Counted from the first letter of the stretch, positions 35,501-53,007 are shown. The stretch: 64,000 nt of DNA from Candidatus Shapirobacteria bacterium (GCA_041666965.1 JBAYFX010000002.1:8417-72416), one strand, 5' to 3'. Program-made: numbers and translations. Notes: generated by a model not told the origin, from the letters alone.

Positions 35501-36088
35501 ACAGCCGTCATTTCCACAGTGTTCTTGAGTTGTACCATTACATCGTTTGTTATCGTCATTTATAGGTGAGCAACCCGTACAGGTTGGTCCTGTCCCGCCC
35601 CCACATACTCCCCCACTACACAACTTTCCATCCGCACACATTTCATTACTGGTACATCCCCCACCCGCTTTTACCTTACAAGACCCATTCTGCCACACTT
35701 CCCATGATTGGCACTGTGGTGTCGCTGTTGGTTGGGGTTTACTTGTCGGTTGAGGTCCGCTTGTTGGAGCCGCACAGCCGTTGGTACAACCCGCCGAATC
35801 ATGGCTACAACTACCTGAGGTAAAAGTTTCGCCGGTACCACTCGAGTTACATGTAGCTGTCACTTCCTTAGCCTTTCCGCAGCCGCAACACTCTCCAAAA
35901 GTTCTTTTAGCTCCAGGCGTACAAGTAGCCGCTCGGTTTTGGGTGTTTTGATTCTGTTGAACTAACTTGGTTGCTGCCGGAAGCGCTATGGCCATCAAAA
36001 GCAATCCCACCATTAATGGTATTTGGGCCAACCCCGCTTGATTAAACCAATTACCTTTACTTTTTGAATTGCGACAGTAATCTTTCAT
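32585..36088 (-). CDS. Giant (1167 aa) secreted Cys-rich multi-module surface protein with PT linkers and dockerin-like C-terminus
   Basis: N-terminal signal anchor. Dozens of Cys in knottin/EGF-like spacing, PT-rich linkers, and two identical-order 45-aa repeats. C-terminal repeat pair DADCNGVTDQADYSIWRKEYL / DFDCNNLVDQADYSNWRRFYL is dockerin-like. Confidence 0.55.
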   Translation of the reverse strand: MKDYCRNSKSKGNWFNQAGLAQIPLMVGLLLMAIALPAATKLVQQNQNTQNRAATCTPGAKRTFGECCGCGKAKEVTATCNSSGTGETFTSGSCSHDSAGCTNGCAAPTSGPQPTSKPQPTATPQCQSWEVWQNGSCKVKAGGGCTSNEMCADGKLCSGGVCGGGTGPTCTGCSPINDDNKRCNGTTQEHCGNDGCWHHDDAKDNNALCAPPTNTPVPTRPAATSTPKATPTPDCTSVCIGLEGLEYTGCISQCMNAGPTQNWKCTPNKITCANGVLSTCKFDASGWTTTNCPSNSCASTTSCATCTGVCSASAPSLPEIIEDKTATCAVGLKCWVTHYPQPCGTKPNNTTECANTHDGFNQCQDGKWVFHSCGSGLVCPAYGSVCVAPTPTPVPPTATPTNAISPGSGCLQTQTYQTKCVSGNSYQCMQIGALFQWTLKTSCGNLGCNSSNGLCVTPTPTTAACLGSGIGCVNGGSGATGCGNCCQPASMIDNQYRCGVVATTPTTAACLGSGIGCVNGGSGATSCANCCQPASMIDNQYRCGVATPTVDPNCMADGTRCYGTGGSPNCNNCCNGSYNTRVDGETVERSYCGSMPDVPVEGNCASMWYGSYIACSNQPIGAQGPCAQGNSCQVFEIENGYNKCMCKPVLAEPTPTPTQGVVPTPTGQVCPCTVGTEMSCSIGVAGQTGYKVCQTLGIASKPSCGDWSECVSNKYACNKLTGNCEANNSSGTYTDKAYCDGQCDQDVSKKYYECDDATWTCKETGTGRYTDVNQCSNNCKKPGTTVTPTTGMPRGCSDSSSRCIYGDGTGAVSCGNGFKNTGSCTTYASQGSFLVDGICCAPDQPTAKACSEGTCTLSTVCPARKMENTPRESCATYGTGIVLQSGICCIDNPNLVTPTPTNTIVPTNRPSTVPTTIPTSIPTTIPTQNPTSPPGGGPTNPPGNNCSYSSLQSRVQANDSDPWKTSMTVVNGETVNIGCMYNTSGQLASSVKLIATYSDGTKEEFNTNKKTDWVPIKTGVVTIKCQSTASNCNNLTSDAASLTVTAAACYDCPSVFRCYKNGENYKWFVLGYEQTGYVHDYTEDGVQKVVPDSACTTRQVVKPTFKGKAKADADCNGVTDQADYSIWRKEYLDKIKTGSRWESDFDCNNLVDQADYSNWRRFYLDFK
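34440..34710. repeat. Tandem 135-bp coding repeat (2 copies, first ~55 bp identical) inside the giant adhesin gene
   Basis: The string taccccgcacctatactgattgtctatcatcgatgccggttggcaacaattt occurs at 34454 and again at 34589. It encodes TTPTTAACLGSGIGCVNGGSGAT.C.NCCQPASMIDNQYRCGV twice. Confidence 0.8.
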
Positions 36089-39279: not shown

Positions 39280-39375
39280 CTTAACGAACGAGGCAAACTA
39301 ATTTTTTGGGCGCGCAGCGATACCGGTAAACGCGAAGCACTTTAACCGGCAAGTTCGAGCACCCAAAAAACGGTT
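39280..39375. repeat. Hairpin-containing intergenic repeat, copy 1 (frr-tsf spacer)
   Basis: GAGGCAAACTAATTTTTTGGGCGCGCAGCGATACC...AAGTTCGAGCACCCAAAAAACGGTTGCC. The TTTTTTGGG/CCCAAAAAA arms are complementary. Confidence 0.7.
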
Positions 39376-39392
39376 GCCAAGTTCAATCTTTT

Positions 39393-39851
39393 TTAAATCT
39401 CAAATCGTTCAATCCGCCCCAGTTTCATATTTTCCCCAAATTTAGACACCAGTTCTTTGATTAAGTCATCAATTTTCCGGCTTGGGTCTTTAATATAATC
39501 CTGAGCCAATAATTCAGTCGCGTCTTTAGGATTCATAGCCGCCACTTGAAGGGCTATTTCTCGGGCTACATTCATAAACTCTTCATTTTTAGCCACAAAA
39601 TCAGTTTCGCAAAGCAACTCTACCATCACCCCAATTTTTCCAGTAGTGTGAGTATAGGTAGCTACTCTCCCCTGCCGGGTTTCCCGGTCAGCCTTTTTCT
39701 CCGCTTTCTCGTAACCTTTCTTTTTTAGTATTTCCATTGTTTTGGCCCTGTCGCCCCCGGCTTCCTCAACCGCTGTCTTAATTTCCATCACTCCAAATCC
39801 AGTCGCTTCCCGAATAACCTTTACTAATTCAATTACTTTTTTGTTGTCCAT
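39393..39851 (-). CDS. tsf: Elongation factor Ts (short form)
   Basis: N-terminal UBA-like segment LVKVIREATGFGVMEIKTAVEEAGGD and a core GRVATYTHTTGKIGVMVEL...DFVAKN. 152 aa. Confidence 0.85.
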   Translation of the reverse strand: MDNKKVIELVKVIREATGFGVMEIKTAVEEAGGDRAKTMEILKKKGYEKAEKKADRETRQGRVATYTHTTGKIGVMVELLCETDFVAKNEEFMNVAREIALQVAAMNPKDATELLAQDYIKDPSRKIDDLIKELVSKFGENMKLGRIERFEI

Positions 39852-39878: not shown

Positions 39879-39955
39879 GAGGCAAACTAATTTTTTGGGC
39901 GCGCAGCGATACCCGAAGGGAAGTTCGAGCACCCAAAAAACGGTTGCCGAAATTC
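39879..39955. repeat. Hairpin-containing intergenic repeat, copy 2 (tsf-rpsB spacer)
   Basis: Same 35-nt left arm and 28-nt right arm as copy 1, with a 7-nt centre instead of 26 nt. Confidence 0.7.
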
Positions 39956-39964
39956 ATAAACTGA

Positions 39965-40885
39965 TTATTTAACCCCAGCCGCTTTAATTGCCCGGCCAAT
40001 TTCCTCAACAATTAATGTCACGGCGTGTACATTATCGTCGTTAGTTGGAATCGCCATGTCAACTATTTCCGGGTTACCGTCAGTGTCCACCATAGCTACA
40101 GTTTTTATTTTCCGCAGTTTGGCTTCCCGAACCGCAGTTTTCTCAAAACCGGCATCCACCAAGAAAATTAAATCAAACAATTTGTCAACATTGCCAATTC
40201 CTCCAACATTTCGCTCGAGTCTGTCAAGTTCTTTGTGAAGTACTGACAATTCTTTTTTGGTTTTGTCGCTGAATTTGTTACCATCCAAACCGTCTTTTAA
40301 ATCCCGATATCTTTTAATGGTTTTTCGAATTTGCTCCCAGTTGGAAATAGTACCACCCAGCCACCGGTCAGTCACATATGGAACTCCGGCGTCAAGCGCT
40401 ACTCTTCGGGTCACTTCACGGGCCATCCTTTTAGTACCTACCATCAATATTTGCTTACCGTTTCTTTTGGCGTTATAAATCATGTCACAAGCCTTCTGTA
40501 AAGCGCCCATGGTTTTAGTTAAGTCAATTATTTCAATTCCGTCTTTGGCGGTGTAAATATTCACTCTGGCTCTTGGATGAGTCTTGCTGACTTTGTGCCC
40601 CAAATGGCATCCGGCCCCAAGCAAGTCTTTAAGTCCAATTGTCAGGTTATATCTTTTGTCCTCAAGTTTTCTTTCTTCTTTTTTAGTTATTTTTACTTCC
40701 TCAGGTTTCGCTTTCTGAGCTTCCAATTTGGTAGCTGCAACTCTGGCTTCATTTAGTTTAGCAATCTGTTCTTTGCTGGTAATCTTTTCAGTCTTTTTCT
40801 CTTTAACAACCAGCGCCGCTTTAGTAATTTTTTTACCGGTGCGGTTGACCGTTTTGACAATTCTTTTTTTGGTGGCTTCTGCCAT
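39965..40885 (-). CDS. rpsB: 30S ribosomal protein S2 with K/E-rich N-terminal extension
   Basis: GAGCHLGHKVSKTHPRA...ILMVGTKR...AGVPYVTDRWLGG S2 core. Sits in the rpsB-tsf-frr order. Confidence 0.9.
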   Translation of the reverse strand: MAEATKKRIVKTVNRTGKKITKAALVVKEKKTEKITSKEQIAKLNEARVAATKLEAQKAKPEEVKITKKEERKLEDKRYNLTIGLKDLLGAGCHLGHKVSKTHPRARVNIYTAKDGIEIIDLTKTMGALQKACDMIYNAKRNGKQILMVGTKRMAREVTRRVALDAGVPYVTDRWLGGTISNWEQIRKTIKRYRDLKDGLDGNKFSDKTKKELSVLHKELDRLERNVGGIGNVDKLFDLIFLVDAGFEKTAVREAKLRKIKTVAMVDTDGNPEIVDMAIPTNDDNVHAVTLIVEEIGRAIKAAGVK

Positions 40886-40980
40886 AGGTTTTATCCTTTT
40901 TATTTTCCCTTTGAGGGCAATTTATATTACCCAGGATAAATCGGGAAAAAAATCTTTAACCGCCTATTGTATCATGCCCA

Positions 40981-42192
40981 TTAGCTTAATGTCTCACCCA
41001 CCACTGACCTAATTGCTCCAATAACCTGCTGCTCTACATCAGGATTATTCCTACTGCTTCCGTCTTCAAATTTTTCCCATACAGCCGGCTCCGAGCCGAC
41101 AGCATGCACATTAAACAAACGTCCACCCATCGTAACCACCAAAATTCCCCAATCGGCACTCCGGCTTACCCTAATACTTACGCTTATCCCGCCAATAGTT
41201 ACTACCCCGTCTATGTCTTGTCTAGATTCGATAAGCTGATCCCTAACTCTATCTAATAATCCTCTGTCAGCTTTAATTCTTACCTTTTCAACCGCAAACC
41301 TTTGCTCAAGACTGTCCCCTCCGGTAACTATCAGTGGCCGGGTCGGACCTTTAGCATCGACCGCTCCCTCCGCTTTTATCGGTTCCCACACTTTTGTAAA
41401 GTTCTGATCGTCTTTTCTACCACTAAACTCTGCCATCTCCGAACCAAAGAGTCTTATTAATCTCCGCATAGTTTTATTAACCTCGCCCACTGAAAATGTA
41501 TCACTCCCCAATGGTCTAAAAACAACCTCATCATTCACCTGGTTTAATCCCTCTACTTTGAAATTTTTTCCACCATTGTCCAAAACATTCACTCTCGGAT
41601 TATCACCATCACCTCCTTGAATAATTACCATCATCATTTCTCCTCTTCCATCTTCGGTTAGTTGGCAATGTAACACCGTGTGAATACTACCATCTTGGCT
41701 CCTATGCTCTTTACCCCCTAACCTTTGTAATCCGGCTACAATTACTCCAAATCTTGAATCTTCTGGTGTCAAACAAAACTCGCTTCTTGAATTAGTATCA
41801 ACAGTCTTAGCTACCTCTCTTGTCCCCACTGATATTATTTTCGCCTCCGCCGATTTCACTGTTATCTCCTCACCTCCCATTCTCTTTTCAGGTACATAAC
41901 CAGTATCAAGACCTTGCAAACCTTTCGTTTTTCCGGCTGCGCGATTCTTCCTCACCAACTCATCAGTCCAGTTCCAAGCAGACATTCCCCTATCATCCGC
42001 GTCCGCTCCCCCATCTCTCCACCTTAGTCTACTTACTGCTTTAAATATTATTTCACCATTTCCCAAGTTCCTAATTCTAAAAACACCTTGCTCTTGCTCT
42101 CTTTCCTGATATACGATATTTTCATCAATCACCTCCCCCCCAAACCTAACATGATAAACATATTTTTGACCTTCAGGACAATTCTTACACAT
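40981..42192 (-). CDS. Hypothetical protein, island gene (G/E/R-rich, 403 aa)
   Basis: Long uninterrupted ORF with no recognisable motif. Its composition is atypical for the rest of the window. Confidence 0.45.
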   Translation of the reverse strand: MCKNCPEGQKYVYHVRFGGEVIDENIVYQEREQEQGVFRIRNLGNGEIIFKAVSRLRWRDGGADADDRGMSAWNWTDELVRKNRAAGKTKGLQGLDTGYVPEKRMGGEEITVKSAEAKIISVGTREVAKTVDTNSRSEFCLTPEDSRFGVIVAGLQRLGGKEHRSQDGSIHTVLHCQLTEDGRGEMMMVIIQGGDGDNPRVNVLDNGGKNFKVEGLNQVNDEVVFRPLGSDTFSVGEVNKTMRRLIRLFGSEMAEFSGRKDDQNFTKVWEPIKAEGAVDAKGPTRPLIVTGGDSLEQRFAVEKVRIKADRGLLDRVRDQLIESRQDIDGVVTIGGISVSIRVSRSADWGILVVTMGGRLFNVHAVGSEPAVWEKFEDGSSRNNPDVEQQVIGAIRSVVGETLS

Positions 42193-42216
42193 ATGCCAAT
42201 AATATCACAAACTAGA

Positions 42217-42408
42217 TCATGTTTTAACCTTGTTTTCCTCCGTTATGATCAGCCTGGCTTGAGGTAATTCTGGTTTAATCGGAACAATTACTAAACCATT
42301 TGTATCAACTCCTTTTCTCTTCCACCCTCCTAACGGTTCCCATGGTCCTTTTGGTATCTGAAATCCATTATCATTATCTAAAATTTTTTTATAATCATGC
42401 CTTCCCAT
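42217..42408 (-). CDS. Small hypothetical protein (63 aa)
   Basis: Short ORF between island genes. Low support. Confidence 0.25.
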   Translation of the reverse strand: MGRHDYKKILDNDNGFQIPKGPWEPLGGWKRKGVDTNGLVIVPIKPELPQARLIITEENKVKT

Positions 42409-42468
42409 AATTAATTATACTACGCACCCAGTAAGTACACCGTAAAAATTTAATCAGTATTACTACTT

Positions 42469-43059
42469 TTACAAAAGTCCCATTTTCATCATTTGTACGT
42501 TAAATACTCCCATAACCTTAGTTGCTATTTCACTGGCTTTTGTTATCGACATGTCACACAAATTAAAGACCTTGAAACTAGTCAATTGCGCATCTTTCAC
42601 CACAAAACTCAAACCATACCAGTTTTCCCCTGTTCTTACTCTAAGTAAAAACTGATCCTCTACCTTATCCCATTGCGCAACAAATTGATCATCAGGATTC
42701 ATACCAAATATCAAGGAAACACCATTGTAACCAGCCATAGTCAAACTTTTTAATGTGCTACGCATTAGTAAAATCCTATACCAATCATTTTCCCCTATTC
42801 CCGCATCAATCATTTGATTTCTTAATTCATTACTGGTGCCGCTCCATTTTAAAGCTGCTCCGGTTTTATCATATTTAGCTATAGAATAAGTAGGGTCTCT
42901 TAGTCGAATCCCTTCCCCTACAGGGTATGGCAAGCTCCCATCGTCCACAGCCGCCCCAAATCCAAAACATTTTGGGGATAGTTGTACCCCCTTTCCCCAC
43001 AAAGTCGGCCCGTCACTTCCTCTAATCTTACTTTCAATATCTCCAAAACTCATCACCAA
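42469..43059 (-). CDS. Hypothetical protein, island gene (196 aa)
   Basis: ORF preceded by a conserved ATATTATAGGTTTA...TATAAT-N5-ATG architecture shared with the next gene. Confidence 0.45.
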   Translation of the reverse strand: MVMSFGDIESKIRGSDGPTLWGKGVQLSPKCFGFGAAVDDGSLPYPVGEGIRLRDPTYSIAKYDKTGAALKWSGTSNELRNQMIDAGIGENDWYRILLMRSTLKSLTMAGYNGVSLIFGMNPDDQFVAQWDKVEDQFLLRVRTGENWYGLSFVVKDAQLTSFKVFNLCDMSITKASEIATKVMGVFNVQMMKMGLL

Positions 43060-43085
43060 TTATACCATATATAAACCTATAATAT
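43059..43085 (-). promoter_or_regulatory. Conserved promoter-like element upstream of 42469-43059
   Basis: The minus strand reads TAATATATTATAGGTTTATATATGGTATAATTGGTGATG. A TATAAT hexamer sits 5 nt before the ATG, suggesting a leaderless start. The ATATTATAGGTTTA box is shared with 43790-43815. Confidence 0.4.
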
Positions 43086-43103
43086 ATTAAAACTTCTACA
43101 CCC

Positions 43104-43790
43104 TCACCCTAAAGTAGATTGACCATAATAACCATCTTTTCCCGCTAAATCTACTGTAGTTTCTGGATTATTTATTATACTGGGCAACAAAGCCATTATT
43201 TTGTCTATCCCAATTCGTTTTTTACCATTTTCTAATCTAGAATCTCTACCTTCAACTGTAAATTCAACTAACTTACTTCTCTCAAATTTACAGTCCACCA
43301 GTACACTATCAGGATTATCAATTTCACTTACAATCATTCTCAAATTTTTTGTGGAATTATCCCAAAACAGTATTAGTCTATTTCCGCTCTCTCCTATCAA
43401 CTTATTAATTAATGCTGATTCCAATCCTTCAATACGTGAGACCTTATCTTCTAATTTATTTGTTAACCTCATAATCATTTCCCATCTCTCTTGGTTTATT
43501 CCTACTCCCTCCATCATCATAGCCAACCCATAATTATCCATACCTTCCCACAGCTTCGACCACTCTTCTTGTTGCAATGGGCCCCCTACCCCCTGAGTCT
43601 GGTTTTCTACCATATCAGTCAAACCGTGTACAAAAGTCATTGATCCTTCCCCGGGTGGATAACCCCCCACAGTCGGCCGCGTCCAAACACCTATCAATCC
43701 CCATCTTAAAACGAAATCAGCGCCTTGCCCCAAACTCCACTCCCCATCTCCTAATGTGCCCCTTGGGCTCACTTCGTAAATCATCGACAA
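43104..43790 (-). CDS. Hypothetical protein, island gene (228 aa)
   Basis: ORF with the same upstream architecture as the downstream gene. No recognisable motif. Confidence 0.45.
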   Translation of the reverse strand: MSMIYEVSPRGTLGDGEWSLGQGADFVLRWGLIGVWTRPTVGGYPPGEGSMTFVHGLTDMVENQTQGVGGPLQQEEWSKLWEGMDNYGLAMMMEGVGINQERWEMIMRLTNKLEDKVSRIEGLESALINKLIGESGNRLILFWDNSTKNLRMIVSEIDNPDSVLVDCKFERSKLVEFTVEGRDSRLENGKKRIGIDKIMALLPSIINNPETTVDLAGKDGYYGQSTLG

Positions 43791-43815
43791 TTATAGCATA
43801 AGTAAACCTATAATA
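43790..43815 (-). promoter_or_regulatory. Conserved promoter-like element upstream of 43104-43790
   Basis: The minus strand reads AACTAATATTATAGGTTTACTTATGCTATAATTGTCGATG: the same box, a TATAAT, a 5-nt gap and an ATG. Confidence 0.4.
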
Positions 43816-44979
43816 TTAGTTTTTATTATCGTACCACCTAGGCAAGTCCACCCCAAAACACCCAATTACCCCATCACCCTCAACTTCTTTAAACATTGAA
43901 TTAAGATGAACCAGTTTTATCTCTCCTAACCCACCCTCCGTTACACAACAAGACAGCATTTCCACTGCTTTTCTCATTTTTGTTCTTATTCTCCAGTCTA
44001 CCGACTCAACCCCTTTTCCTGTTTGATTCATCAAATTCACTAATACCACCTCTCCCTCCTCATCAAAATTCGCTATTATTTTCCAATTTTCATTTGTAAC
44101 TTTATCTTGAATCACGATTCTTAATATTCTGTCATTTGACTCCCAAGCTCCAATCGCTTTATTAGTTTCTCCGTCTGCTACTAAAATTCCCACATCCGCA
44201 CCCGCATCATAATATAAAGAATTCTCAAGCATCCCTTTTACCCCATAAATCCCATCCAAATCCCCTTGGTTAAAACCCAACCCTTCTAATCTTTTTCTAA
44301 CTTGATATGACGTCCCCTCTTCCCACCCGCCCCCACTCATTTCCTGTTCTTCACGTAACTCAGTTATGTTTTCTTTGGCTGCTTTATGTACTACCTGCCA
44401 CATACTACTCCAATCAAAACCCTCTTTAATATCACCATCTATCTCAGTTACCCTGTCACCCTCAAACCTTACTCTAACTTTTGCTAAAGTTTCACCCTCT
44501 TCTTCTGGCTCCAATTCAATTCTCAAAACTCCATCATCAGCATAACTTGCCAGTAATTTACGGTCCCCTATTCGGTAAGTTAAATATCCAACCTCTCCGC
44601 TCGCCATATCAGTCCCAATTTGTTTTTTTATATCAACCACGCTTAAAAATGCCGCACCCCCCAACTTCATTTCCACCAGCTTACGTTTATCCAATCCACT
44701 AGGTTTCAAAGTCAATGTCTCCGCTTGGGGCATTACTTCACCCTCCACTTTCAGAGTCTCCATAGCTTCTCTAAAGGCCATTTCGTTTTCAATACCTTCC
44801 ATTAAACTCTCCCGGCTTCTCATTGCCCTGGTTACTTCTGGTAATTTTGGTCTTGGTCCGTCCCCCGTCGGATATTCCATTCCTGTTACTCGTGTCCTAA
44901 ATTGACTCAAGCACCCGGCTACTTGCCAACCAAGAGGGTTATACCCTCTCTTTCCTTCACCGCTTTCTATTTTAGCCAT
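43816..44979 (-). CDS. Hypothetical protein, member of island paralog family (387 aa)
   Basis: N-terminal GYNPLGWQVAGC resembles DGLALRPVTGC of the 642-aa protein. Carries a W/E-rich module (AIGAWESNDRILRIVIQDKVTNENWKIIANFDEEGE). Confidence 0.45.
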   Translation of the reverse strand: MAKIESGEGKRGYNPLGWQVAGCLSQFRTRVTGMEYPTGDGPRPKLPEVTRAMRSRESLMEGIENEMAFREAMETLKVEGEVMPQAETLTLKPSGLDKRKLVEMKLGGAAFLSVVDIKKQIGTDMASGEVGYLTYRIGDRKLLASYADDGVLRIELEPEEEGETLAKVRVRFEGDRVTEIDGDIKEGFDWSSMWQVVHKAAKENITELREEQEMSGGGWEEGTSYQVRKRLEGLGFNQGDLDGIYGVKGMLENSLYYDAGADVGILVADGETNKAIGAWESNDRILRIVIQDKVTNENWKIIANFDEEGEVVLVNLMNQTGKGVESVDWRIRTKMRKAVEMLSCCVTEGGLGEIKLVHLNSMFKEVEGDGVIGCFGVDLPRWYDNKN

Positions 44980-45251
44980 TAGTTACTTGGGTGGTACATG
45001 CCCACCCTTGCCCCTAATTTAACTGCATAATCGATTAGGAGTAAATCATCTGTCACCCTGAGTCCCTTTAAATTCAGTTGTATGTCACCTCCACCTCTTG
45101 GTTGTGGTAAATCTGCCACTACCAACTCAGTTGTCAACCCATATTCACCAATACACTTTCGGCAGGCGTCAACCGGCTCTCTTCTCCCCCCTGCTTCCAC
45201 CACCGCCAATCCAACTCCGATTTCAGTTTTGCAAAATGTACATTTACTCAT
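44979..45251 (-). CDS. Zn-ribbon small protein (CxxC...CxxC), island gene
   Basis: 90 aa. CTFCKTEIG...ACRKCIGEYG. Translationally coupled to its flanking genes (1-2 nt junctions). Confidence 0.4.
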   Translation of the reverse strand: MSKCTFCKTEIGVGLAVVEAGGRREPVDACRKCIGEYGLTTELVVADLPQPRGGGDIQLNLKGLRVTDDLLLIDYAVKLGARVGMYHPSN

Positions 45252-45253
45252 AA

Positions 45254-46246
45254 TTAATTCAAATTTAAATTTATAATTCGTCCATTAGTTACAACTGTAT
45301 CTTCCTTCCCCCCATAAACTCCAAACCTATCAACTTTACTTGGATCAACCCATCCCAAGTCAGGTTTAGGGTCATCTACAAATTCAAAGACCGGAATCTC
45401 TTCTTTCTGTGTCTTCTCTTGTTCTAGTTCTACTACTTTCCAATCAGAAGTAACCAACCCGCAAATCAGACCTGTTTCAGCTCCCTCTTCTCCCAGTTCT
45501 CCGCCCTCAGCCTCTTCAATTATCTCAATTCCCCTAATACTCTCCGCTTCTCCGTACTCCATTAAGTGGTTCAAAAAACTACTCACTATTCCTCTTTGAA
45601 CCTCATCAGGCAAACTACCCGCCTGGGTAATAAACGCAAATGCCTCAACTTCCCCGCTCTCACCAAACCCAAAGCTAATCCCAAAATCTTCCATCGAGTC
45701 GTCACTCCAAACAACTGCCAAAGTCCCCTCCGCCCTATCCCACATCACCGAAGCATCAAAACTTCCAGCAGCTAAAAATGCACAGGCGACCTGCTCCATA
45801 CCATTAAGCGCTTTGCCTAATTCCTTCTTAAAATACAATATTCTGGCCCAACTTTCCGGACCAAACCCAAATCCTTCCATCTCCGTTCGGAAATCCCCCA
45901 GCTTCCTCCATTCAATTTCCCTTTCAATTACCTTCAAGCCTTCGTATTTGGGCATATCCGTTACCGGTACTCCCATTCCGGCATAAACGCACAACGATTC
46001 TTCCCAAACTCTAAAAGCCTCTTCCATTTTTAAAAACCGCACTGGCAATACCGGGTCAATCCCTTCCTTCTCCCTCCTGAACCCTACTCCCTTCAGACTC
46101 TCTCCAGTTGCGCCCCCCCCTGCCACGTCCATAACTAACTGCGAATATGGCCTCAACGCCACTCCATCATGACCCTCCCTCCTTTCACTTTTATCTTCAC
46201 CTCTTATTTCTTTTTCTAAATCTCCCATCAGTTTCTCCCCCACCAA
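45254..46246 (-). CDS. Hypothetical protein, member of island paralog family (330 aa)
   Basis: N-terminus MVGEKLMG...DGVALRP parallels MGEKKMG...DGLALRP of the 642-aa protein. Shares the GFGPESWARILYFKKEL motif. Confidence 0.45.
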   Translation of the reverse strand: MVGEKLMGDLEKEIRGEDKSERREGHDGVALRPYSQLVMDVAGGGATGESLKGVGFRREKEGIDPVLPVRFLKMEEAFRVWEESLCVYAGMGVPVTDMPKYEGLKVIEREIEWRKLGDFRTEMEGFGFGPESWARILYFKKELGKALNGMEQVACAFLAAGSFDASVMWDRAEGTLAVVWSDDSMEDFGISFGFGESGEVEAFAFITQAGSLPDEVQRGIVSSFLNHLMEYGEAESIRGIEIIEEAEGGELGEEGAETGLICGLVTSDWKVVELEQEKTQKEEIPVFEFVDDPKPDLGWVDPSKVDRFGVYGGKEDTVVTNGRIINLNLN

Positions 46247-48156
46247 CTACTAATAACTAATCTAGGAGCAAGTTCTTTTATTGTAATTCTTTGCAAACTT
46301 TTCTCACCCATAACACCCCTTAATTCCCAATCAACTGGAAATTCACCTTTGGTCGTGTCATCCACTCTTTTCTCCTTTTTGGGAATAACTTCACAACTCC
46401 AATCATCCTGTTTTGCCGCCATTTCCCCCAATAGTGCCAACCCCATACCCACTTTTCTATTTTGCCACCTTTTTCCCTTTCCCTCTGTTAGTTCCATATC
46501 CCACGCCGCCAATTCTCCACTTTCGTCAAACATAAAATGTAACCTATGTACTTCTTCCCCCTTTCTCCAACCTACCTCTACAAACCCCGGCTTTTCCCCG
46601 CTTACCCAAACCGTATGTTTTCTCAGTTCTGTTTTCAGTTTTATTACTGTACCCTCTGGCTCGTTTATCAAACTTTTTTCAATCCCTCCGGCCATTACCA
46701 CTAAGTCGTACCACCGCTCATGAGTAAACCCCGCCTCCTCCAAAGCTTGCTGAAACTCCCCTACTTTGCTCCAAACCACACCTAGTTGGCTCTCCAGTTT
46801 CTTGTCATTACCTTTATTTAATCCAATTACCCACGACCCTTTAGCTCTGAAAATTTTTGAAGTTAATGTTTCTTCACAAAAGTAATTTGGTTCTGCCTCA
46901 AGAGGTTCGTTTTTAGGTCTAAATCCCCAAAACTTTGCTTCGTGATTTTTCTCCACCCAGCACCGTCCTCCGTCCCTTTCCTCAACCCTAGGTCTCCTCT
47001 CTGCTCTAGGCCCCACTTCTTCCAGCTCAACCAAATTAATATCAATATTCGTCTCTTCCGTCTTCATTAGTCGCATTATGGCCCTTACCTCACCAATTCC
47101 TTCCACCCATTCATCTTTTGGGTACTCTTCACCGTTCCTTTCCACCGTTAACATCGCCAAGTCACCCGCCTTGTCAAACATAAAAGTCAGTGTCTTTTCC
47201 TCACCCTGCCCCGCCCTGTCCCAAATCAGTGTCAACCGGCATTTTCCTTGTTCCCACTCCAACCCAATTACCTTTTCTCCAATGGTAATCTCTCCCACTG
47301 CCATTTTATTACTCTCACCTACAAGTTTAGCTTCCCCAATATCTTTTAGATGAAGTACGTTTACCCAATCTTCGTGTTCAATACCGCAGTCATTTAACAA
47401 CTGCTGTCTTTTACCAACATTTTCCCAAGTCTCAGGCTCCCCTTCACCTAATTGGTCAACTACCAAAGTTCCTTCAGTTGCTAACTGCTGTTCGGTAAAT
47501 GCTCCAATGTCATAAATCAAACTACTTCTGTCCACCTTCTTCATTTTGGCAAGTAATTTCTCTATAACAGTTTTTCTTGTTTCTAAGTCTCCTACCGACT
47601 CTGTGTCAATTTGCAAATCCAAGCACTCAAAGCCACCTTCTTTGCTAAAGCCAATACACAACGAATGCCATCTCAACTCCTCATTATTCCAAAAAATATT
47701 TAGCGAACTCTCGTCCACATCCCATTGAGCCCCCACCTCTTCTCTATTAATCCTTAAATTCCCACTAGAAATAATTTGTTTTTTGTCGCTATCAATAACT
47801 ATCCTTAACTCTTGGCGTAAATACAACACATCCGCCCAAGCTTCCCGGTCAAAGCCGTTTTTCACCAATTCCTCTCCCGCTTTAGTTCCCTTCATTTGAT
47901 CCCAACTACTACTAAAGTCATTTTCTGTCCGATATGGCCATCTGGTCCAAGGCACTTCGTCTCCTCCATGGGCCGCCAAACAAAACTGTACATCTACTCC
48001 CCAAGACTGCTCAAGGTCCGCAATTATTCTTGGAAACAAGTCACTAGAATATGCCGATTCAGCCCCCGGTTCCAATGCTTCCCTAACACATCCCGTTACC
48101 GGTCTGAGCGCCAAACCATCATTCCCCTCAACCCTGCCCATTTTTTTCTCCCCCAT
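46228..48156 (-). CDS. Hypothetical repeat protein, largest member of island paralog family (642 aa)
   Basis: Three internal copies of a ~150-aa module marked by G(F/I)xHExW..VL.L and W...R.L.hhFDe.GE. No known domain. Confidence 0.45.
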   Translation of the reverse strand: MGEKKMGRVEGNDGLALRPVTGCVREALEPGAESAYSSDLFPRIIADLEQSWGVDVQFCLAAHGGDEVPWTRWPYRTENDFSSSWDQMKGTKAGEELVKNGFDREAWADVLYLRQELRIVIDSDKKQIISSGNLRINREEVGAQWDVDESSLNIFWNNEELRWHSLCIGFSKEGGFECLDLQIDTESVGDLETRKTVIEKLLAKMKKVDRSSLIYDIGAFTEQQLATEGTLVVDQLGEGEPETWENVGKRQQLLNDCGIEHEDWVNVLHLKDIGEAKLVGESNKMAVGEITIGEKVIGLEWEQGKCRLTLIWDRAGQGEEKTLTFMFDKAGDLAMLTVERNGEEYPKDEWVEGIGEVRAIMRLMKTEETNIDINLVELEEVGPRAERRPRVEERDGGRCWVEKNHEAKFWGFRPKNEPLEAEPNYFCEETLTSKIFRAKGSWVIGLNKGNDKKLESQLGVVWSKVGEFQQALEEAGFTHERWYDLVVMAGGIEKSLINEPEGTVIKLKTELRKHTVWVSGEKPGFVEVGWRKGEEVHRLHFMFDESGELAAWDMELTEGKGKRWQNRKVGMGLALLGEMAAKQDDWSCEVIPKKEKRVDDTTKGEFPVDWELRGVMGEKSLQRITIKELAPRLVISSWWGRN

Positions 48157-49183
48157 TTTTTATAAACGCATCTAATGCCAACACTAATTGGGGTACTTCC
48201 GCCATTAATCGCAATCTTTCAACTAAACTCATTGGTTTTGTGCCTCTATTAGCTACAAATTTCACCGCACTCTCCTCTCGTATATCAAATTTCTCTTTTG
48301 TTTTACCTACCTTAAAACACATTTGAAATCCTCCCGGTCTGCCATCCAGCGTGCTCGAAATCATCAGGGTTGTCTCGCCCCCCTCAAACTGCCCCAACCA
48401 TAGTCCTCTTGCCTCACTTTCCGTTACTTTAATAGCCATCCCTCTGCCTCCGTCCTCATCTGGTGGCAAATCCTCCAAATTCACCACTAAATCTTCTAAA
48501 TGTTCACGACCAGACAGTTCCATTCCTCTATTGTCCTGAGCCGAGGTCTTTTCTTCTTCCCGTCCCATTTCAGCCAATAATTCTGGAATCCAAGCCAAAA
48601 TCGCTACTTTTTCTCCCCGACACAATTCCCTCTTTTCACCTGTAGGGGTTGCTAATTCATAGCATTCTCCTTCAACATATTTTAATCCCTCCCCCTCCCC
48701 CCTTTTAATCCCAAGAACCATTCGCTGTTCACTTTCACCCTTATTTACTGTAATTTCAATTCGACTTCTTCTTTTTGTAGTTACGTCCATAAAGGCTCGA
48801 ACCCCAATCTCCCCGGCTTGTAACTCCACCTCAGTTCTTTTTCCGTCTTCTTCTTCTAGAAGCCTTCCAGTCATGGCTTGGGCCAGGTCATTAATCCACT
48901 CCTGTTCAACCCCTCCTCTCCTTATCTCAGGATCAACCTCATCTCGTAGACCCCAAACCACTGTCATAATACGAGTCACTAATTCTCCTTCTATTGGTAC
49001 AGCTCCATTAAGTGCCGCCTCCCGAAACCCACCTCTGAAAAAAGTAGTGCCAGATCCATGTTCTGGTGTGTCTAATAGAAAAAGATTTCGCGTCCCCTTA
49101 CCAATTTCACCCGCCCCCGTCTTCAATCCATCATCATTTTTTAGTGTTCTACCTTTTCCAATATTTCGGAAATACTCAGCCAC
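48128..49183 (-). CDS. Hypothetical protein, first gene of island operon (351 aa)
   Basis: GTG start preceded by AAAGGAAC (an SD-like sequence). E/G/R-rich. Overlaps the next gene by 29 nt. Confidence 0.45.
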   Translation of the reverse strand: MAEYFRNIGKGRTLKNDDGLKTGAGEIGKGTRNLFLLDTPEHGSGTTFFRGGFREAALNGAVPIEGELVTRIMTVVWGLRDEVDPEIRRGGVEQEWINDLAQAMTGRLLEEEDGKRTEVELQAGEIGVRAFMDVTTKRRSRIEITVNKGESEQRMVLGIKRGEGEGLKYVEGECYELATPTGEKRELCRGEKVAILAWIPELLAEMGREEEKTSAQDNRGMELSGREHLEDLVVNLEDLPPDEDGGRGMAIKVTESEARGLWLGQFEGGETTLMISSTLDGRPGGFQMCFKVGKTKEKFDIREESAVKFVANRGTKPMSLVERLRLMAEVPQLVLALDAFIKNGGEKNGQG

Positions 49184-49385
49184 TCCGGTTCCTTTGCTTT
49201 AAACCCAATAAATTATTACGTTCCATAATCCGGTTGAATATAAGCACTAATTTTTTGCCCGTGTAATCTATCCCTGTTTGGTCCACAAACTCCGCTAACA
49301 TTCAAGGATTGTGAAAGTGTTCCCTGGTAAACAATTATTCCCATCTCAACTCCGGTAGTTTCTCTTCCCTTTTTTAAACAGATAT

Positions 49386-50000
49386 TTGACATTGTTTTGT
49401 TTTAAAATCCGGGTTCTTGTGTTGTGTGTTGCTTGTGTTTGTTTTGTTTTTTGTTGGCTTGGTTTGTGCCCTTGGCCGCTTTTCCCGCCTGTCGGCGGGA
49501 CGGCATCTCGGGCATCGCCGCTTCTTTGTGTGCGCCCAAGCCACCGTCCCGCCTGCTTTTACGTCGTCGTTACCTCCTCAGGTAGACCTTGCTTGGCACG
49601 GCATTCTGGACATAACTTCCGTCCATAGACCCTGCGTCCGCATCCACCTTGGCACCAGCACCCGTTTTTGCAACGAGTAGAGTCTGACGCCCTTCGACGA
49701 CGCTTTTCCTCAGCCGGCTGTTTGTTGGGAGACATGGTGTCGCCCTCCTTTGAGCGACCCTATACGAGGGGGGTTGGGGAAAGACATTTGTGGCGATTCG
49801 GGAAACCCGAATCGGGGGGCGCAACAGCGCCGAAATCCAACTCGCAAAACTTCAGCGAATGGAACCCAAACGACTCCGGCTCTACCGGAACCCTTTGGGG
49901 TCCATCCACTAACAATCTATTCTTTTCTTCTAGCGCTCTAGCGTACTCTCGTACCAGCGAACTAACGTACTATTTTTACAAGAACCCGGATTGTTAATGA
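49386..50000. other. GC-rich (~57%) structured noncoding element, candidate large ncRNA or cis-regulatory/recombination structure
   Basis: No coherent ORF; only mutually overlapping short frames on both strands. GT-rich 5' part. Nested inverted repeats GGCGGGACGG(49497)/CCGTCCCGCC(49544) and ACGTCGTCG(49559)/CGACGACGC(49693). Hairpin CGATTCGG-GAAA-CCGAATCG at 49794-49814, followed by GGCGC-AACA-GCGCC. Confidence 0.5.
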
Positions 50001-50158
50001 ACCTTCCAGGGCTCCCTCCCAAGCGTTATGGGACTTCACCTTAAAATTACCCCATAATATAAACTCAATTTAATAAATTTGCAAGCACCAAAAGCCCATT
50101 TTTCAGACGTAAAAGAAGTTTGTAACAATTTAGTAAGAAATACTACTTAATATATCTT

Positions 50159-50374
50159 TTATCCTATATTTCCATTCCTCTTATTATTTGTCTTTCTGTG
50201 CTTTACCTCTTCCCAATGTTTTAACGACTGTAAATCAGCACCGTCCACACTATATATTCCCAAATTCATCCGACAGCGCCAGCAAAGAGCCCACTCTTCA
50301 CCGTTTGCCAATTTTGCCACCACCTTAAGCGGTTTGTAATGTCTACACCCAGGACAAAATTCTAAAACCGCCAT
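50159..50374 (-). CDS. Zn-ribbon small protein (71 aa)
   Basis: CPGC...CWRC four-Cys arrangement with a basic tail. Confidence 0.4.
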   Translation of the reverse strand: MAVLEFCPGCRHYKPLKVVAKLANGEEWALCWRCRMNLGIYSVDGADLQSLKHWEEVKHRKTNNKRNGNIG

Positions 50375-50392
50375 AATTAATCATACTCTCCC

Positions 50393-50860
50393 CTACCCCT
50401 CAATCGTCCACAACCTTACTGTATTCCTACGGACTAAGTCACTAATTCCAAAACTCTCATCCGGGTCAACCTCTTTCCATTGCCGGGGTAAAAACACTCC
50501 AAAAGGCTGGGGCCACAAATATGCCCCCACCCAAAAAATAACCGGATCCTCCCGAGCGATTATATTTATTTCTGTCATTGACCAGGTTTTACTCATTAGA
50601 GCAATCTGTCTCAATTGAGGCCATATTCCCCCATCCACTCGATACTTATAACTTCCAGTTAAACTATATTTAAAACTCGGTTCTGCTACTTTTTGAACTG
50701 AAATCAAACTGGGACGGACTATTGGCACTTCCGTTATATTAATCCTCAATACCTGCCAAGGATAAACCTGCAGCACATCTCTTTTTTCCAACATCGGCGA
50801 ATATAACTCAAATAAATAAACTTTTAGTAAATAAATCAACCGACTTTGCTCTATACTCAT
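50393..50860 (-). CDS. Hypothetical protein (155 aa)
   Basis: ORF with no motif. The GGGGTAGGGGAGAGT motif lies at its 3' flank. Confidence 0.35.
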   Translation of the reverse strand: MSIEQSRLIYLLKVYLFELYSPMLEKRDVLQVYPWQVLRINITEVPIVRPSLISVQKVAEPSFKYSLTGSYKYRVDGGIWPQLRQIALMSKTWSMTEINIIAREDPVIFWVGAYLWPQPFGVFLPRQWKEVDPDESFGISDLVRRNTVRLWTIEG

Positions 50861-50862
50861 TT

Positions 50863-53007
50863 ATGTCCGACATGGGCTTAACTTTTCTTGAAGTACGTTT
50901 GCCTCAAACCAATGAGTTTCCCCTGGAAGCCATGAGTTCTCTTCTGTCTAATTTTAGCGGGGCTGTCTCCCGTGGGTTTGTTGACCGAATTTTTGGCCGT
51001 TTTCCCGTCATTTCTTCTTTGGAAGTTGTCTTAAGTGGTAACCTTATTCGCTTCTTTCTCGTCACCCCCACCAGCCGCTCGGAATTTATCAAAAACCAAA
51101 TTTTGGCCCAGTACCCCAGTGCCCTCCTTCGAGAGTCTACAGATGATTACCTGCCTCAAGTTTTTGCCCCCTCCCAACTTGTTTTATCCCGCTCCTACGA
51201 CTATCCGCTCAAAACCAGTAAGGATTTTAGAGACATTGATCCTTTTTCCTCCATTCTCTCTCCTCTGGCTCGCTCTACTTCTGCCACCGATTTCTTTCTT
51301 TATCAAATACTTCTCTCCCCCGCCCCAGACAATTGGCAATCATCTATTACCTCCATCATTCAAAACGGAATTTTGGTTGATTCCGCCAAGAACTTCCGCC
51401 AGTCCCACCCCGACAAAGCCGTCTTTGAGCAAAAAATCCAGTTCCCCGGTTTAACTGCACAAATCAACATAGCTTCCACTTCCCCGGGCCTTCTTTCAGC
51501 TTTCAGCTCCAGCTTCGGGGTTTATACCAATCCCCGGGGAAACATCATTAAATCCTCTTCTCCTGGTCCTTTTAGCCGCTCTAAACTCACCAAATCCATC
51601 ACTACCCGCCGCCTTTTAGGCCGCCGATTAATCCTCAACACCGAAGAATTAGCCGTCCTCTGGCATTTACCTAACAAATACACCAAAATCCCCAACATTG
51701 CCTGGGGCCAAAATTTGTATGCCGACCCTCCGGAAAACCTACCGGTCTCCGATGGCGCCACCGACGAGCAAAAACAAAACATCAACTTTTTTGCCCGTAC
51801 CGACTTCAAAAACCGTAGTGCCATTTTTGGCATCAAAGAAGGCGAGGACCGCCGCCGTCACACCTATATTATTGGTAAGTCCGGTACTGGTAAAACTACC
51901 CTCATTTCCAATATGGCCATCGATGACATTCGTAAAGGCCGGGGAGTTGCCATCATCGACCCTCACGGCGATCTTTGCCAAACCATTCTCGATTATATTC
52001 CTGCCCACCGCGCCAACGACTGCTGTTATTTCAATCCGGCCGACCCCGATTACGCTTACCCTCTAAATGTTTTAGAAGCTCAAAACGATTCTCAGCGGGA
52101 GCTGGTAGCCTCTGGGGTCATTTCCATTTTCAAAAAACTCTACGGTAACATTTCCTGGGGTCCCCGCCTCGAACATATCCTGCGCAACGCCGTCTTAACT
52201 CTTGTTAATGTTCCAGGCTCAGACTTGTCCCACATTGTCGAAATTTTAACTAATAAAACCTTCCGGCAAAAGATCGTTCCTCAGTTAACCAACCAAACTC
52301 TTAAAAACTTCTGGATCAACGAGTTTGACCAAATGGACCCAAAGTTCCAAAACGAAGCCATTGCTCCAATTTTAAATAAGGTTGGCCAGTTCATATCAAG
52401 CAGTAACATCCGTAACACCGTCGCCCACCCCGTCTCCAAGGTTCGGATTCAAGACATCATGGACCAAAAAAAGATTCTTATTGCCGACCTGTCTACCGGT
52501 AAGCTAGGCGAGGACAACTCAGCCTTACTCGGCGCCATGTTAATCACCCAAATCCAACTTTCGGCCATGAACCGGGTATTTCAGGCCCAAGAGGAGCGCT
52601 CCGACTTTTATTTATATGTTGATGAATTCCAAAATTTCGCCACCGAAGCTTTCATCAAAATTCTGTCCGAAGCCCGCAAGTTCCGCCTTAACCTAATTAT
52701 CGCCAACCAGTACATGAGTCAGCTTGAGCGTCCCATTCAGGACGCGATTTTTGGCAACGTCGGCTCCCTAATTGCCTTTGTGGTGGGTAATCAGGATGCT
52801 TTCATCTTAAGTAAAGAATTCGGCCCCAATTTTCCCCCCGAAGATTTGGTCAAAATCGGTAAATACCAAATCATTTCCAAACTCAGCATCGATTCAGCTA
52901 CCACCGAACCCTTCTATGCTCACACTTTAGCTCCACCCGACTGTAAAAACCAAGGCCGCGACAAACTCATCCGCAATTCCCAGGAACGCTGGGGTAAACG
53001 TAAATAA
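50863..53007 (+). CDS. TraD/VirD4/TrwB-like P-loop ATPase (type IV coupling-protein-like), apparently cytoplasmic
   Basis: Walker A IIGKSGTGKTTLISN, IIDPHGDL, Walker B-like YLYVDEFQNF, and ARKFRLNLIIANQYMSQL resembling the TraD/TrwB ARKYG...QS.SQL block. No N-terminal TM segments. Confidence 0.6.
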   Translation: MSDMGLTFLEVRLPQTNEFPLEAMSSLLSNFSGAVSRGFVDRIFGRFPVISSLEVVLSGNLIRFFLVTPTSRSEFIKNQILAQYPSALLRESTDDYLPQVFAPSQLVLSRSYDYPLKTSKDFRDIDPFSSILSPLARSTSATDFFLYQILLSPAPDNWQSSITSIIQNGILVDSAKNFRQSHPDKAVFEQKIQFPGLTAQINIASTSPGLLSAFSSSFGVYTNPRGNIIKSSSPGPFSRSKLTKSITTRRLLGRRLILNTEELAVLWHLPNKYTKIPNIAWGQNLYADPPENLPVSDGATDEQKQNINFFARTDFKNRSAIFGIKEGEDRRRHTYIIGKSGTGKTTLISNMAIDDIRKGRGVAIIDPHGDLCQTILDYIPAHRANDCCYFNPADPDYAYPLNVLEAQNDSQRELVASGVISIFKKLYGNISWGPRLEHILRNAVLTLVNVPGSDLSHIVEILTNKTFRQKIVPQLTNQTLKNFWINEFDQMDPKFQNEAIAPILNKVGQFISSSNIRNTVAHPVSKVRIQDIMDQKKILIADLSTGKLGEDNSALLGAMLITQIQLSAMNRVFQAQEERSDFYLYVDEFQNFATEAFIKILSEARKFRLNLIIANQYMSQLERPIQDAIFGNVGSLIAFVVGNQDAFILSKEFGPNFPPEDLVKIGKYQIISKLSIDSATTEPFYAHTLAPPDCKNQGRDKLIRNSQERWGKRK

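Follow-up and report, generated by a model that had tools for sequence, protein, structure and literature searches.

Tandem paralogues of small, acidic and soluble alpha/beta domains, some of them fused in one polypeptide, make up the polyimmunity, SUKH and Imm arrays, in which rapid diversification and differential copy retention are common and in which close relatives differ in the number and content of their copies; such immunity arrays have been described by Zhang, Iyer and Aravind. An analogy of another kind is offered by the oomycete RxLR-WY effectors and the MIX effectors of type VI secretion systems (T6SS), which combine a short conserved N-terminal motif with repeated tryptophan-containing modules, copy-number change and a raised ratio of nonsynonymous to synonymous change (dN/dS). 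The genomes of the Patescibacteria, or candidate phyla radiation (CPR), measure about 1 Mb and commonly contain orphan clusters; these bacteria rely on other cells, and the proteins behind their interactions are, to our knowledge, almost entirely uncharacterized. Type IV secretion system (T4SS) genes occur widely in the Patescibacteria, type IV coupling proteins (T4CPs) occur there as orphans by the thousands, and VirB2 pilins form tandem, highly divergent arrays of paralogues, with ~25% identity within an array, which are abundant in Microgenomatia (PMC12102498). Here we describe a locus that shares part of its organization with these systems, contained in a stretch of 64,000 nucleotides from Candidatus Shapirobacteria bacterium (GCA_041666965.1 JBAYFX010000002.1:8417-72416), which is referred to below as the window. 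The locus is an island of nine open reading frames (ORFs) on the minus strand at 40981-49183, all of which are present where the original prediction, made from the sequence without database searches, had placed them, and five of the nine proteins carry copies of a module of ~105 residues. The module is a previously undescribed domain, with no known sequence or structural relative at the sensitivity used, and the locus is restricted to one clade, fixed in position and hypervariable in sequence.

Like the immunity arrays, the island consists of tandem paralogues of small acidic soluble alpha/beta domains, some fused in one polypeptide; it also diversifies rapidly, its copies are retained differentially, and their number and content differ among close relatives. 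However, the Imm and SUKH families gave no match by sequence or by structure, neither a toxin gene nor an orphan toxin tip was found in the island or its flanks, and the island is set apart by a gene order that is fixed across lineages, by terminal linear motifs and by accompanying zinc-ribbon proteins. A simple cassette array does not sit well with this fixed order and with the motifs that the proteins share. The RxLR-WY and MIX effectors have the combination of motif and tryptophan-containing modules in common with the island proteins, but the latter are unrelated to them in sequence and fold and lack both a signal peptide and a known secretion apparatus nearby, and their export is hypothetical. 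Whereas VirB2 is small, hydrophobic and secreted, the island proteins are 196-642 aa long, acidic and devoid of a hydrophobic segment, with no virB4 nearby, and they show neither the hydrophobic N-terminal alpha-1 helix nor the prepilin-peptidase site of type IV pilins. The original prediction had stated that nothing in the island matches a known system and that its proteins show no recognizable domains, and both statements were borne out, as searches of Pfam, PHROGs, PADLOC and NCBIfam gave nothing for any of the nine proteins, no PDB match was obtained, and no PADLOC model of a known anti-phage defence system was hit. It had also offered a phage-derived structural module as one option, which is unlikely, since there was no PHROG match, no Foldseek match to BFVD at E<1e-3 and no relative in IMG/VR. 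Its other option, an immunity/effector array, would agree with the raised dN/dS, the mosaicism and the birth and death of modules described below, but neither a toxin nor a match to an immunity family nor a secretion apparatus was found. A target of a diversity-generating retroelement was rejected, because no reverse transcriptase domain was found and no direct repeat >40 nt occurs in 40900-50200.

In word-indexed searches across 5.8 billion clusters, each protein recovered itself and a single relative. When 1.84 billion representatives were scanned exhaustively by HMMER, the profile of the module retrieved 11 proteins, nine of them from the clade; the other two were the giant proteins P0008 and P0010, in which ~30-50 profile positions were matched weakly per stretch, and these short repeat matches were treated as beta-hairpin noise. 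All credible matches among the 11 come from 4-5 lineages of one clade, which agrees with the novel, lineage-restricted family that had been proposed. The family was found on four other contig sets, namely L001 (Logan ERR13624443), L011, which is identical to L012 (JGI 3300037810 and ENA ERZ27249449), L016 and L017, and the gene order is the same in each of them as far as the contig extends. In L011, which represents a sister species, it reads PBP2-dprA-topA-ATPase-x133-x65-leader-x121-x356-x519-x91-x387-x225-x203-x70-x218-rpsB-tsf-frr-rseP-GH39. The island had been presented as lineage-specific and possibly variable in its presence among close relatives, yet the sister species carries the operon at the same site and in the same gene order, and it is the sequence and the module content that vary instead. 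We favour the reading that the operon has been vertically inherited within a narrow Shapirobacteria clade. The nearest two genomes recovered from the GTDB representative set, at 52% RpsB identity, have neither the island nor the neighbouring ATPase upstream of rpsB. In one distant relative (Patescibacteria metagenome-assembled genome JAHIPV010000016.1, 7779-9810 of the retrieved contig L004), an AbiEii toxin and a DUF4143/AAA_14 ATPase lie just upstream of rpsB, showing that this site can hold accessory or defence genes, and the position may be a recurrent landing place for such genes. The original prediction had set the island between an rpsB-tsf-frr-rseP block and topA; the rpsB side was right, but topA is not adjacent, as a T4CP-like ATPase, two genes and a ~1-kb leader intervene. 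The NCBI label for the proteins of the window is 'hypothetical protein, Candidatus Shapirobacteria bacterium', and the 196-aa protein is identical to the record 'hypothetical protein WCT01_00900, Candidatus Shapirobacteria bacterium'.

The starting hidden Markov model (HMM) of the module was seeded solely on three copies from the 642-aa protein (g642) and one from the 330-aa protein (g330), which match each other in BLASTP with an E of 7e-12 and in which weak repeats are also visible by BLASTP, and it was then iterated. The seed HMM also recovered the 196-aa (E 8e-8), 387-aa (1.5e-6) and 228-aa (4.6e-6) proteins, and after iteration seven module copies were counted across five of the nine proteins. 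As predicted, three of these copies lie in g642 (46228-48156), at residues 84-186 (47599-47907), 243-342 (47131-47430) and 462-558 (46483-46773). One copy each is carried by g330 (45254-46246) at residues 112-209 (45620-45913), by g387 (43816-44979, 387 aa) at residues 219-320 (44020-44325), by g228 (43104-43790, 228 aa) at residues 81-182 (43245-43550) and by g196 (42469-43059, 196 aa) at residues 71-166 (42562-42849), all on the minus strand. The group of paralogues had been proposed to comprise the 642-, 330- and 387-aa proteins and, with a question mark, the 351-aa protein (g351; 48128-49183, minus); the first three were confirmed, g351 was not, and g228 and g196, which had not been listed, proved to be members. 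The module HMM gave g351 4.6-8.8 bits, against a best score of 8.3 bits in 700 shuffles (hhalign P 0.04), so that it scores at shuffle level; g351, the first large gene of the operon, encodes an acidic, soluble protein. The N-terminal half of g387, the 403-aa protein (g403) and its sister-species counterpart x218 were rejected as module members, being significant neither with the HMM nor with hhalign, and no homologue of g403 was found anywhere.

Two tryptophans and one glycine are invariant across the ~105 residues of the module, and an aromatic residue is nearly so in the strand ...hxFxF(D/G)ExGEh.... The AlphaFold2 (AF2) model, built from a 10-sequence paralogue alignment, has a predicted local distance difference test (pLDDT) of 81 and a predicted template modelling score (pTM) of 0.76, and it places three N-terminal helices before a five-stranded antiparallel meander and a C-terminal helix. 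When g330 was modelled at full length, the module alone was ordered (pLDDT 82-93), with residues 16-100 and 248-330 below pLDDT 50. Foldseek searches of PDB and BFVD with the module model gave no match below E 1e-3 and query-normalized TM scores that were all <0.4, and a PDB sequence search by the module profile gave just noise (E>0.27). The W-x-x-x-G start of the module had suggested a relation to the WXG proteins of type VII secretion systems (T7SS), an identity that was dropped because there was no WXG100 Pfam match and the predicted fold is different.

Short linear motifs are found near both ends of these proteins. The motif (L)PYPxG[DEG]G lies at residues 37-51 in the 387, 228, 196 and 90 families in every lineage examined, appearing as YPTGDG in g387, YPPGEG in g228, LPYPVGEG in g196 and LPQPRGGGD in g90, against a background of two occurrences of PxG[DEG]G in 14,293 core residues. 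A second motif, NDG(L/V/I)ALRP, opens the 642 and 330 proteins (NDGLALRP in g642, HDGVALRP in g330) and the outgroup protein r680. An N-terminal signature, MGEKxMG...DG(L/V)ALRP, had been attributed to four proteins; it is present only in the 642- and 330-aa proteins, and g387, g228, g196 and g90 have YPxG[DEG]G in common. At the C-terminus, the tail ...GWVDP...NGRIINLN(L/F)N occurs on g330 (as ...GWVDP...NGRIINLNLN), x519 and r680, with a related tail on r94, and LP(R)WYDNKN occurs on g387 (as LPRWYDNKN), x387, r392 and P0011. Both tails are far better conserved than the proteins that bear them, and the N-terminal motifs and C-terminal tails fall in regions that AF2 predicts to be disordered.

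The remaining genes of the block are g90 (44979-45251, 90 aa), which has the CxxC...CxxC of a zinc ribbon, g63 (42217-42408, 63 aa), a small, basic ORF, and g403 (40981-42192, 403 aa), the last gene before rpsB and without a module, all likewise on the minus strand. Five genes had been described as translationally coupled through overlaps of 1 to 29 nt, with a zinc-ribbon protein, which is g90, among them. The packing is indeed tight, with overlaps of 29 nt (351/642), 19 nt (642/330) and 1 nt (90/387), but the 330/90 junction is a 2-nt gap; the last four genes of the block are separated by gaps of 24-60 nt, and no convincing terminator was found within the nine-gene block. None of the nine proteins has a hydrophobic segment (maximum 19-residue Kyte-Doolittle score <=1.13), and no signal peptide, known secretion motif or transmembrane segment was found in them. 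With the exception of the 63-aa protein they are acidic, with isoelectric points of 4.4-6.5, as compared with neighbouring core proteins that are mostly basic. A composition rich in G, E, R and W had been noted; glycine (10-13%), glutamate (up to 14%) and tryptophan (up to 4%) are all enriched, but arginine is not distinctive. The plus-strand GC skew over the block is -0.42 to -0.54, the coding (minus) strand being strongly G > C, and the GC content of 0.38-0.45 is in line with the rest of the window. A 39-nt direct repeat with 85% identity (43047-43085 and 43778-43816) covers the start codons of g196 and g228 together with the sequence upstream of each, which implies that the duplication took in the 5' region; it contains a TATAAT box and may mark internal promoters.

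At the protein level, the island proteins evolve 5-15 times faster than their surroundings. The flanking proteins of the window and L011 are 91-97% identical, with a dN/dS of 0.03-0.09 and a synonymous divergence (dS) of 0.5-1.05. Among the island proteins, g351 and x356 share 76% amino-acid identity (dN/dS 0.51), g387 and x387 76% (0.28), g90 and x91 67% (0.56) and g228 and x225 55% (0.46), and the more distant comparisons give 45% for g351 with r341 of L001, 30% for g387 with r392 and 48% for g90 with r94. Identity falls to 26-29% for g642 and g330 with x519 and to 26% for g196 with x203, which holds the same position in the sister species, and similarity is undetectable for the positional pairs g63 and x70 and g403 and x218, the latter an unrelated protein of 218 aa. 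Over the alignable island segments the nucleotide identity is 78-85%, about as in the flanks, and dS is equal to or lower than that of the flanks, so that the excess of amino-acid change reflects weak or diversifying selection rather than an earlier split. The ORFs are intact in at least three lineages with a dN/dS clearly <1, and it can be taken as established that this is a real operon, which looks expressed and on which some purifying selection acts.

Divergence also shifts abruptly inside genes. Between g228 and x225, residues 44-103 are 85-95% identical (dS ~0.1) and residues 104-223 only 32-45%, with a mosaic breakpoint in g228 near 43520. The outgroup protein r680 has three modules, each of which survives in a different lineage: module 1 corresponds to module 1 of g642 (59% identity), which is itself ~20% identical to anything in the sister species, module 2 has its counterpart only in x519 of the sister species (49%), and module 3 in P0009 (49%). 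The g642-g330 pair of the window holds 3+1 modules, as against two in the sister species, and copies have been retained differentially between lineages.

The unit is longer than first reported and spans about 10 kb on the minus strand, from ~50860 to 40981. A promoter-like TTGCAA-17-TATATT (50056..50084, minus) lies within a block conserved in the sister species and is followed by a structured 5' leader of ~600 nt (49401..50052, minus) with a CA-rich tract and conserved hairpins, of which the counterparts are L011 8150-8745 and L001 1-130; the distance from g71, the gene upstream of it, to g351 is ~970 bp. The leader has a minimum free energy of -244.5 kcal/mol in the window, compared with -192.5+-4.6 kcal/mol for shuffles (z -11.4), and z is -6.5 for the leader of the sister species. 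A long-range helix of 14-20 bp, in which 49978-49997 pairs with 49401-49420, closes the fold, and its arms do not vary among the copies available; two compensatory changes are seen in one 5' hairpin, and a long near-perfect hairpin stands at the same position in both species with a different sequence. The 3' block GATGCCCGAG...GGCGGGAAAAGCGGCCAAGGGCAC, the CA-rich tract and CAAGAACCCGGATTTTA are nearly identical even in L001, the proteins of which are 30-57% identical. The GC content of the leader reaches 56-61%, against 43% for the window. In Rfam only tRNAs passed the gathering threshold, and at E<=10 the region 49000-50500 gave noise alone; the leader is a new large structured RNA of no known family. 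Its inverted repeat, with 20-nt arms 557 nt apart that are invariant in relatives, fits an invertible promoter switch, and the leader repeats could form such a switch; all three assembled copies have the same orientation, and no adjacent recombinase was found.

Origin of the leader from a miniature inverted-repeat transposable element was rejected, as there are no other copies within the window, and metagenome matches to a leader 20-mer were six chance hits on high-GC contigs. A viral link through leader motifs was likewise rejected, since the IMG/VR matches arose by chance or consisted of an 18-mer that one gut-phage family shares by coincidence. This 18-mer, ACAAGAACCCGGATTTTA, occurs in 76 IMG/VR contigs, most of about 80-140 kb and mostly from sample 3300045988 (L018-L093); it sits in one conserved viral context without wider leader similarity and was for that reason judged a coincidence.

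Several small genes accompany the leader on the minus strand. Within it, s58a (49559..49735) is a putatively coding ORF of 58 aa, basic, Cys-rich and zinc-ribbon-like, preceded by an AAGGAGG Shine-Dalgarno sequence; in L011 its position, Shine-Dalgarno sequence, basic N-terminus and CxxC...CxxC are kept and the sequence has diverged. Downstream, s58b (49216..49392, 58 aa), like s58a an uncalled ORF, is homologous to the C-terminal part of x121 of L011, which carries CxxC...CxxC, and has lost the cysteines in the window copy. Upstream of the leader lie g71 (50159..50374), a small zinc-ribbon protein with 36% identity to x65 (dN/dS 0.54), and g155 (50393..50860; the likely true start at 50794 gives 133 aa), a W-rich, basic protein with 76% identity to x133 and a moderately fast dN/dS of 0.145, in which no domain was found. 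Counting s58a, s58b, g71 and g90, there are four or five tiny proteins of the zinc-ribbon type in the region.

Our preferred explanation, offered tentatively, is that the modules form a protein-binding array in an antagonistic interaction and serve in intracellular recognition or neutralization, in the manner of an immunity or decoy array. Soluble modules of non-enzymatic appearance, flexible motif-bearing ends, coupled synthesis and fast divergence are best fitted by protein-binding units in antagonism, and it is on this basis that we infer a binding function, a role for the motifs and a setting of conflict. Transcription would probably start at the conserved promoter and run through the ~600-nt structured leader, and the products would be soluble, acidic proteins synthesized in the cytoplasm together with several tiny zinc-ribbon proteins. 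The modules would act as protein-binding units, and YPxG[DE]G, NDGxALRP, NGRIINLNLN and LPRWYDNKN on the flexible ends may be docking signals among the subunits or to a shared partner. Selection, either relaxed or diversifying, would vary the surfaces of the modules, as would recombination of divergent alleles and the gain or loss of whole modules, the opponent being a host, a phage or a competitor. Four points weigh against this explanation. Pfam, PHROGs, PADLOC and NCBIfam revealed no toxin, nuclease or other enzyme, and no known immunity family, within the operon or close to it; dN/dS is <1 in nearly every interval, so that relaxed constraint alone could account for the rates; the fixed order, the one-to-one orthologues and the translational coupling fit a stoichiometric complex better than a cassette array; and the comparison drew on only two to four lineages.

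The explanation that survives best beside it, though we consider it rather unlikely, is that the proteins are exported, either as effectors or as components of an assembly at the surface or in contact with a host, and would leave the cell by a non-Sec route with a terminal motif as the export signal, perhaps read by the T4CP-like ATPase; their modules would engage host targets. The short conserved motifs on predicted-flexible termini of otherwise hypervariable proteins point in this direction, and fast mosaic evolution is typical of effectors, but neither a signal peptide nor a known secretion motif was found in the island proteins, and adjacency is the sole link to the ATPase. The latter (50863..53007, plus strand, 714 aa) is divergently transcribed and is an orphan T4CP-like protein (VirD4/TraD/DUF87) with an N-terminal DUF8128; its Pfam matches, to TrwB_AAD_bind, DUF87 and TraG-D_C, are weak, and PADLOC gave only the generic P-loop models HerA, mad8 and DndH. 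With canonical T4CPs (VirD4/TraD/TrwB and the pLS20-like DUF87 proteins) it has the P-loop, TrwB and TraG-D_C regions in common, but it is chromosomal, a core gene in the clade and without adjacent relaxase or channel genes, and DUF8128 replaces the transmembrane helices. Full-length homologues with 23% identity open the conjugation operons carried by Bacillus plasmids, beside a relaxase, and the homologues as a whole are mostly plasmid-borne and in some cases phage-borne. The ATPase immediately adjoins the unit and is 97% identical in the sister species with a dN/dS of 0.03, a core-like rate, as would befit a machine component, and the wide occurrence of T4SS genes and orphan T4CPs in Patescibacteria agrees with such a role (PMC12102498). 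Nevertheless, it is the sole T4SS-type gene that was found in the 64-kb window when others were looked for, its position beside dprA and topA fits DNA uptake equally well, and a T4CP homologue was reported to be non-essential for the epibiotic growth of Ca. S. epibionticum (PMC12102498). A 2025 survey of Patescibacteria counted 5,713 VirD4 homologues, just 148 of them near virB4 (PMC12102498). The ATPase, linked to the island solely by its position, is a candidate member at most. We regard it as improbable that the operon represents a new class of host-directed proteins or contact apparatus of an episymbiotic CPR bacterium, defined as a family by the new alpha/beta module, with motif-tagged non-Sec export, possibly through a T4CP, module shuffling under pressure from the host and control by the leader RNA or an invertible switch.

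Somewhat less likely than export is a lineage-specific intracellular heteromeric complex, a scaffold or regulator with fixed places for its subunits, that would evolve fast through low constraint and without conflict. It would explain why gene order and one-to-one orthologues are kept in four lineages, why start and stop codons overlap, why dN/dS is <1 almost everywhere, and why rpsB-tsf-frr follows directly downstream of the operon in the same orientation, without a convincing terminator in between. However, the number of modules per protein differs between sister species (3+1 versus 2) and the last three genes have been replaced or have diverged past recognition, both of which argue against a rigid complex, and the operon is absent from other Patescibacteria. 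We hold as improbable, too, that the region descends from a plasmid or virus which integrated long ago, carried the T4CP-like ATPase, the zinc-ribbon ORFs and the orphans, and is now decaying in near-neutral drift. In favour of this are the mostly plasmid- and partly phage-borne homologues of the ATPase, the four or five tiny zinc-ribbon ORFs and many orphans typical of mobile elements, and the raised dN/dS. Against it, neither an integrase or relaxase nor a gene for replication or a capsid nor any att-like repeat was found beside the region, which has no relative in IMG/VR, in which the ORFs remain intact under a dN/dS clearly <1 and the ATPase is core-like, of which the GC content matches the genome, and in which a conserved promoter and structured leader have been maintained.

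Other features of the window lie mainly on the rpsB side of the island. A small hairpin element (GGCAACCGTTTTTTGGGTGC ... GCGCGCCCAAAAAATTAGTTTGCC) occurs twice on the minus strand, at 39881-39948 between rpsB and tsf and at 39292-39378 between tsf and frr; of these, only the second has a counterpart in the sister species (L011 16875-16996), with a different interior, and it may be an intercistronic terminator, a processing hairpin or a miniature mobile element. Ribosomal protein S2 (39965-40885) is 306 aa long owing to a K/E-rich N-terminal extension of ~70 residues, and EF-Ts (39393-39851) has merely 152 aa; both the extension and the short form are conserved in the sister species. A protein of 1167 aa with 9.2% cysteine and no Pfam domain is encoded at 32585-36088 on the minus strand, and a gene for 1015 aa stands at a comparable position in the sister species. 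Compared with an ENA contig of the same organism (ERZ27249449 k141_112945, L002), the window shows two single-base differences, at 39575 and 52173.

The case for following up this locus rests on a combination of features, namely a confidently predicted new fold, rates and mosaicism that stand against near-identical flanks, terminal motifs and a large conserved leader, and what is gained for characterization is one new domain family and one new large structured leader RNA. Should the operon be merely a low-constraint orphan cluster, it would still show the speed at which such genes turn over in reduced genomes. It fills about 1% of a ~1-Mb genome at a fixed site beside rpsB, changes at roughly ten times the rate of its neighbours while its modules are shuffled, and provides a concrete, testable candidate for a system of interaction with hosts, phages or competitors in an uncultured lineage.

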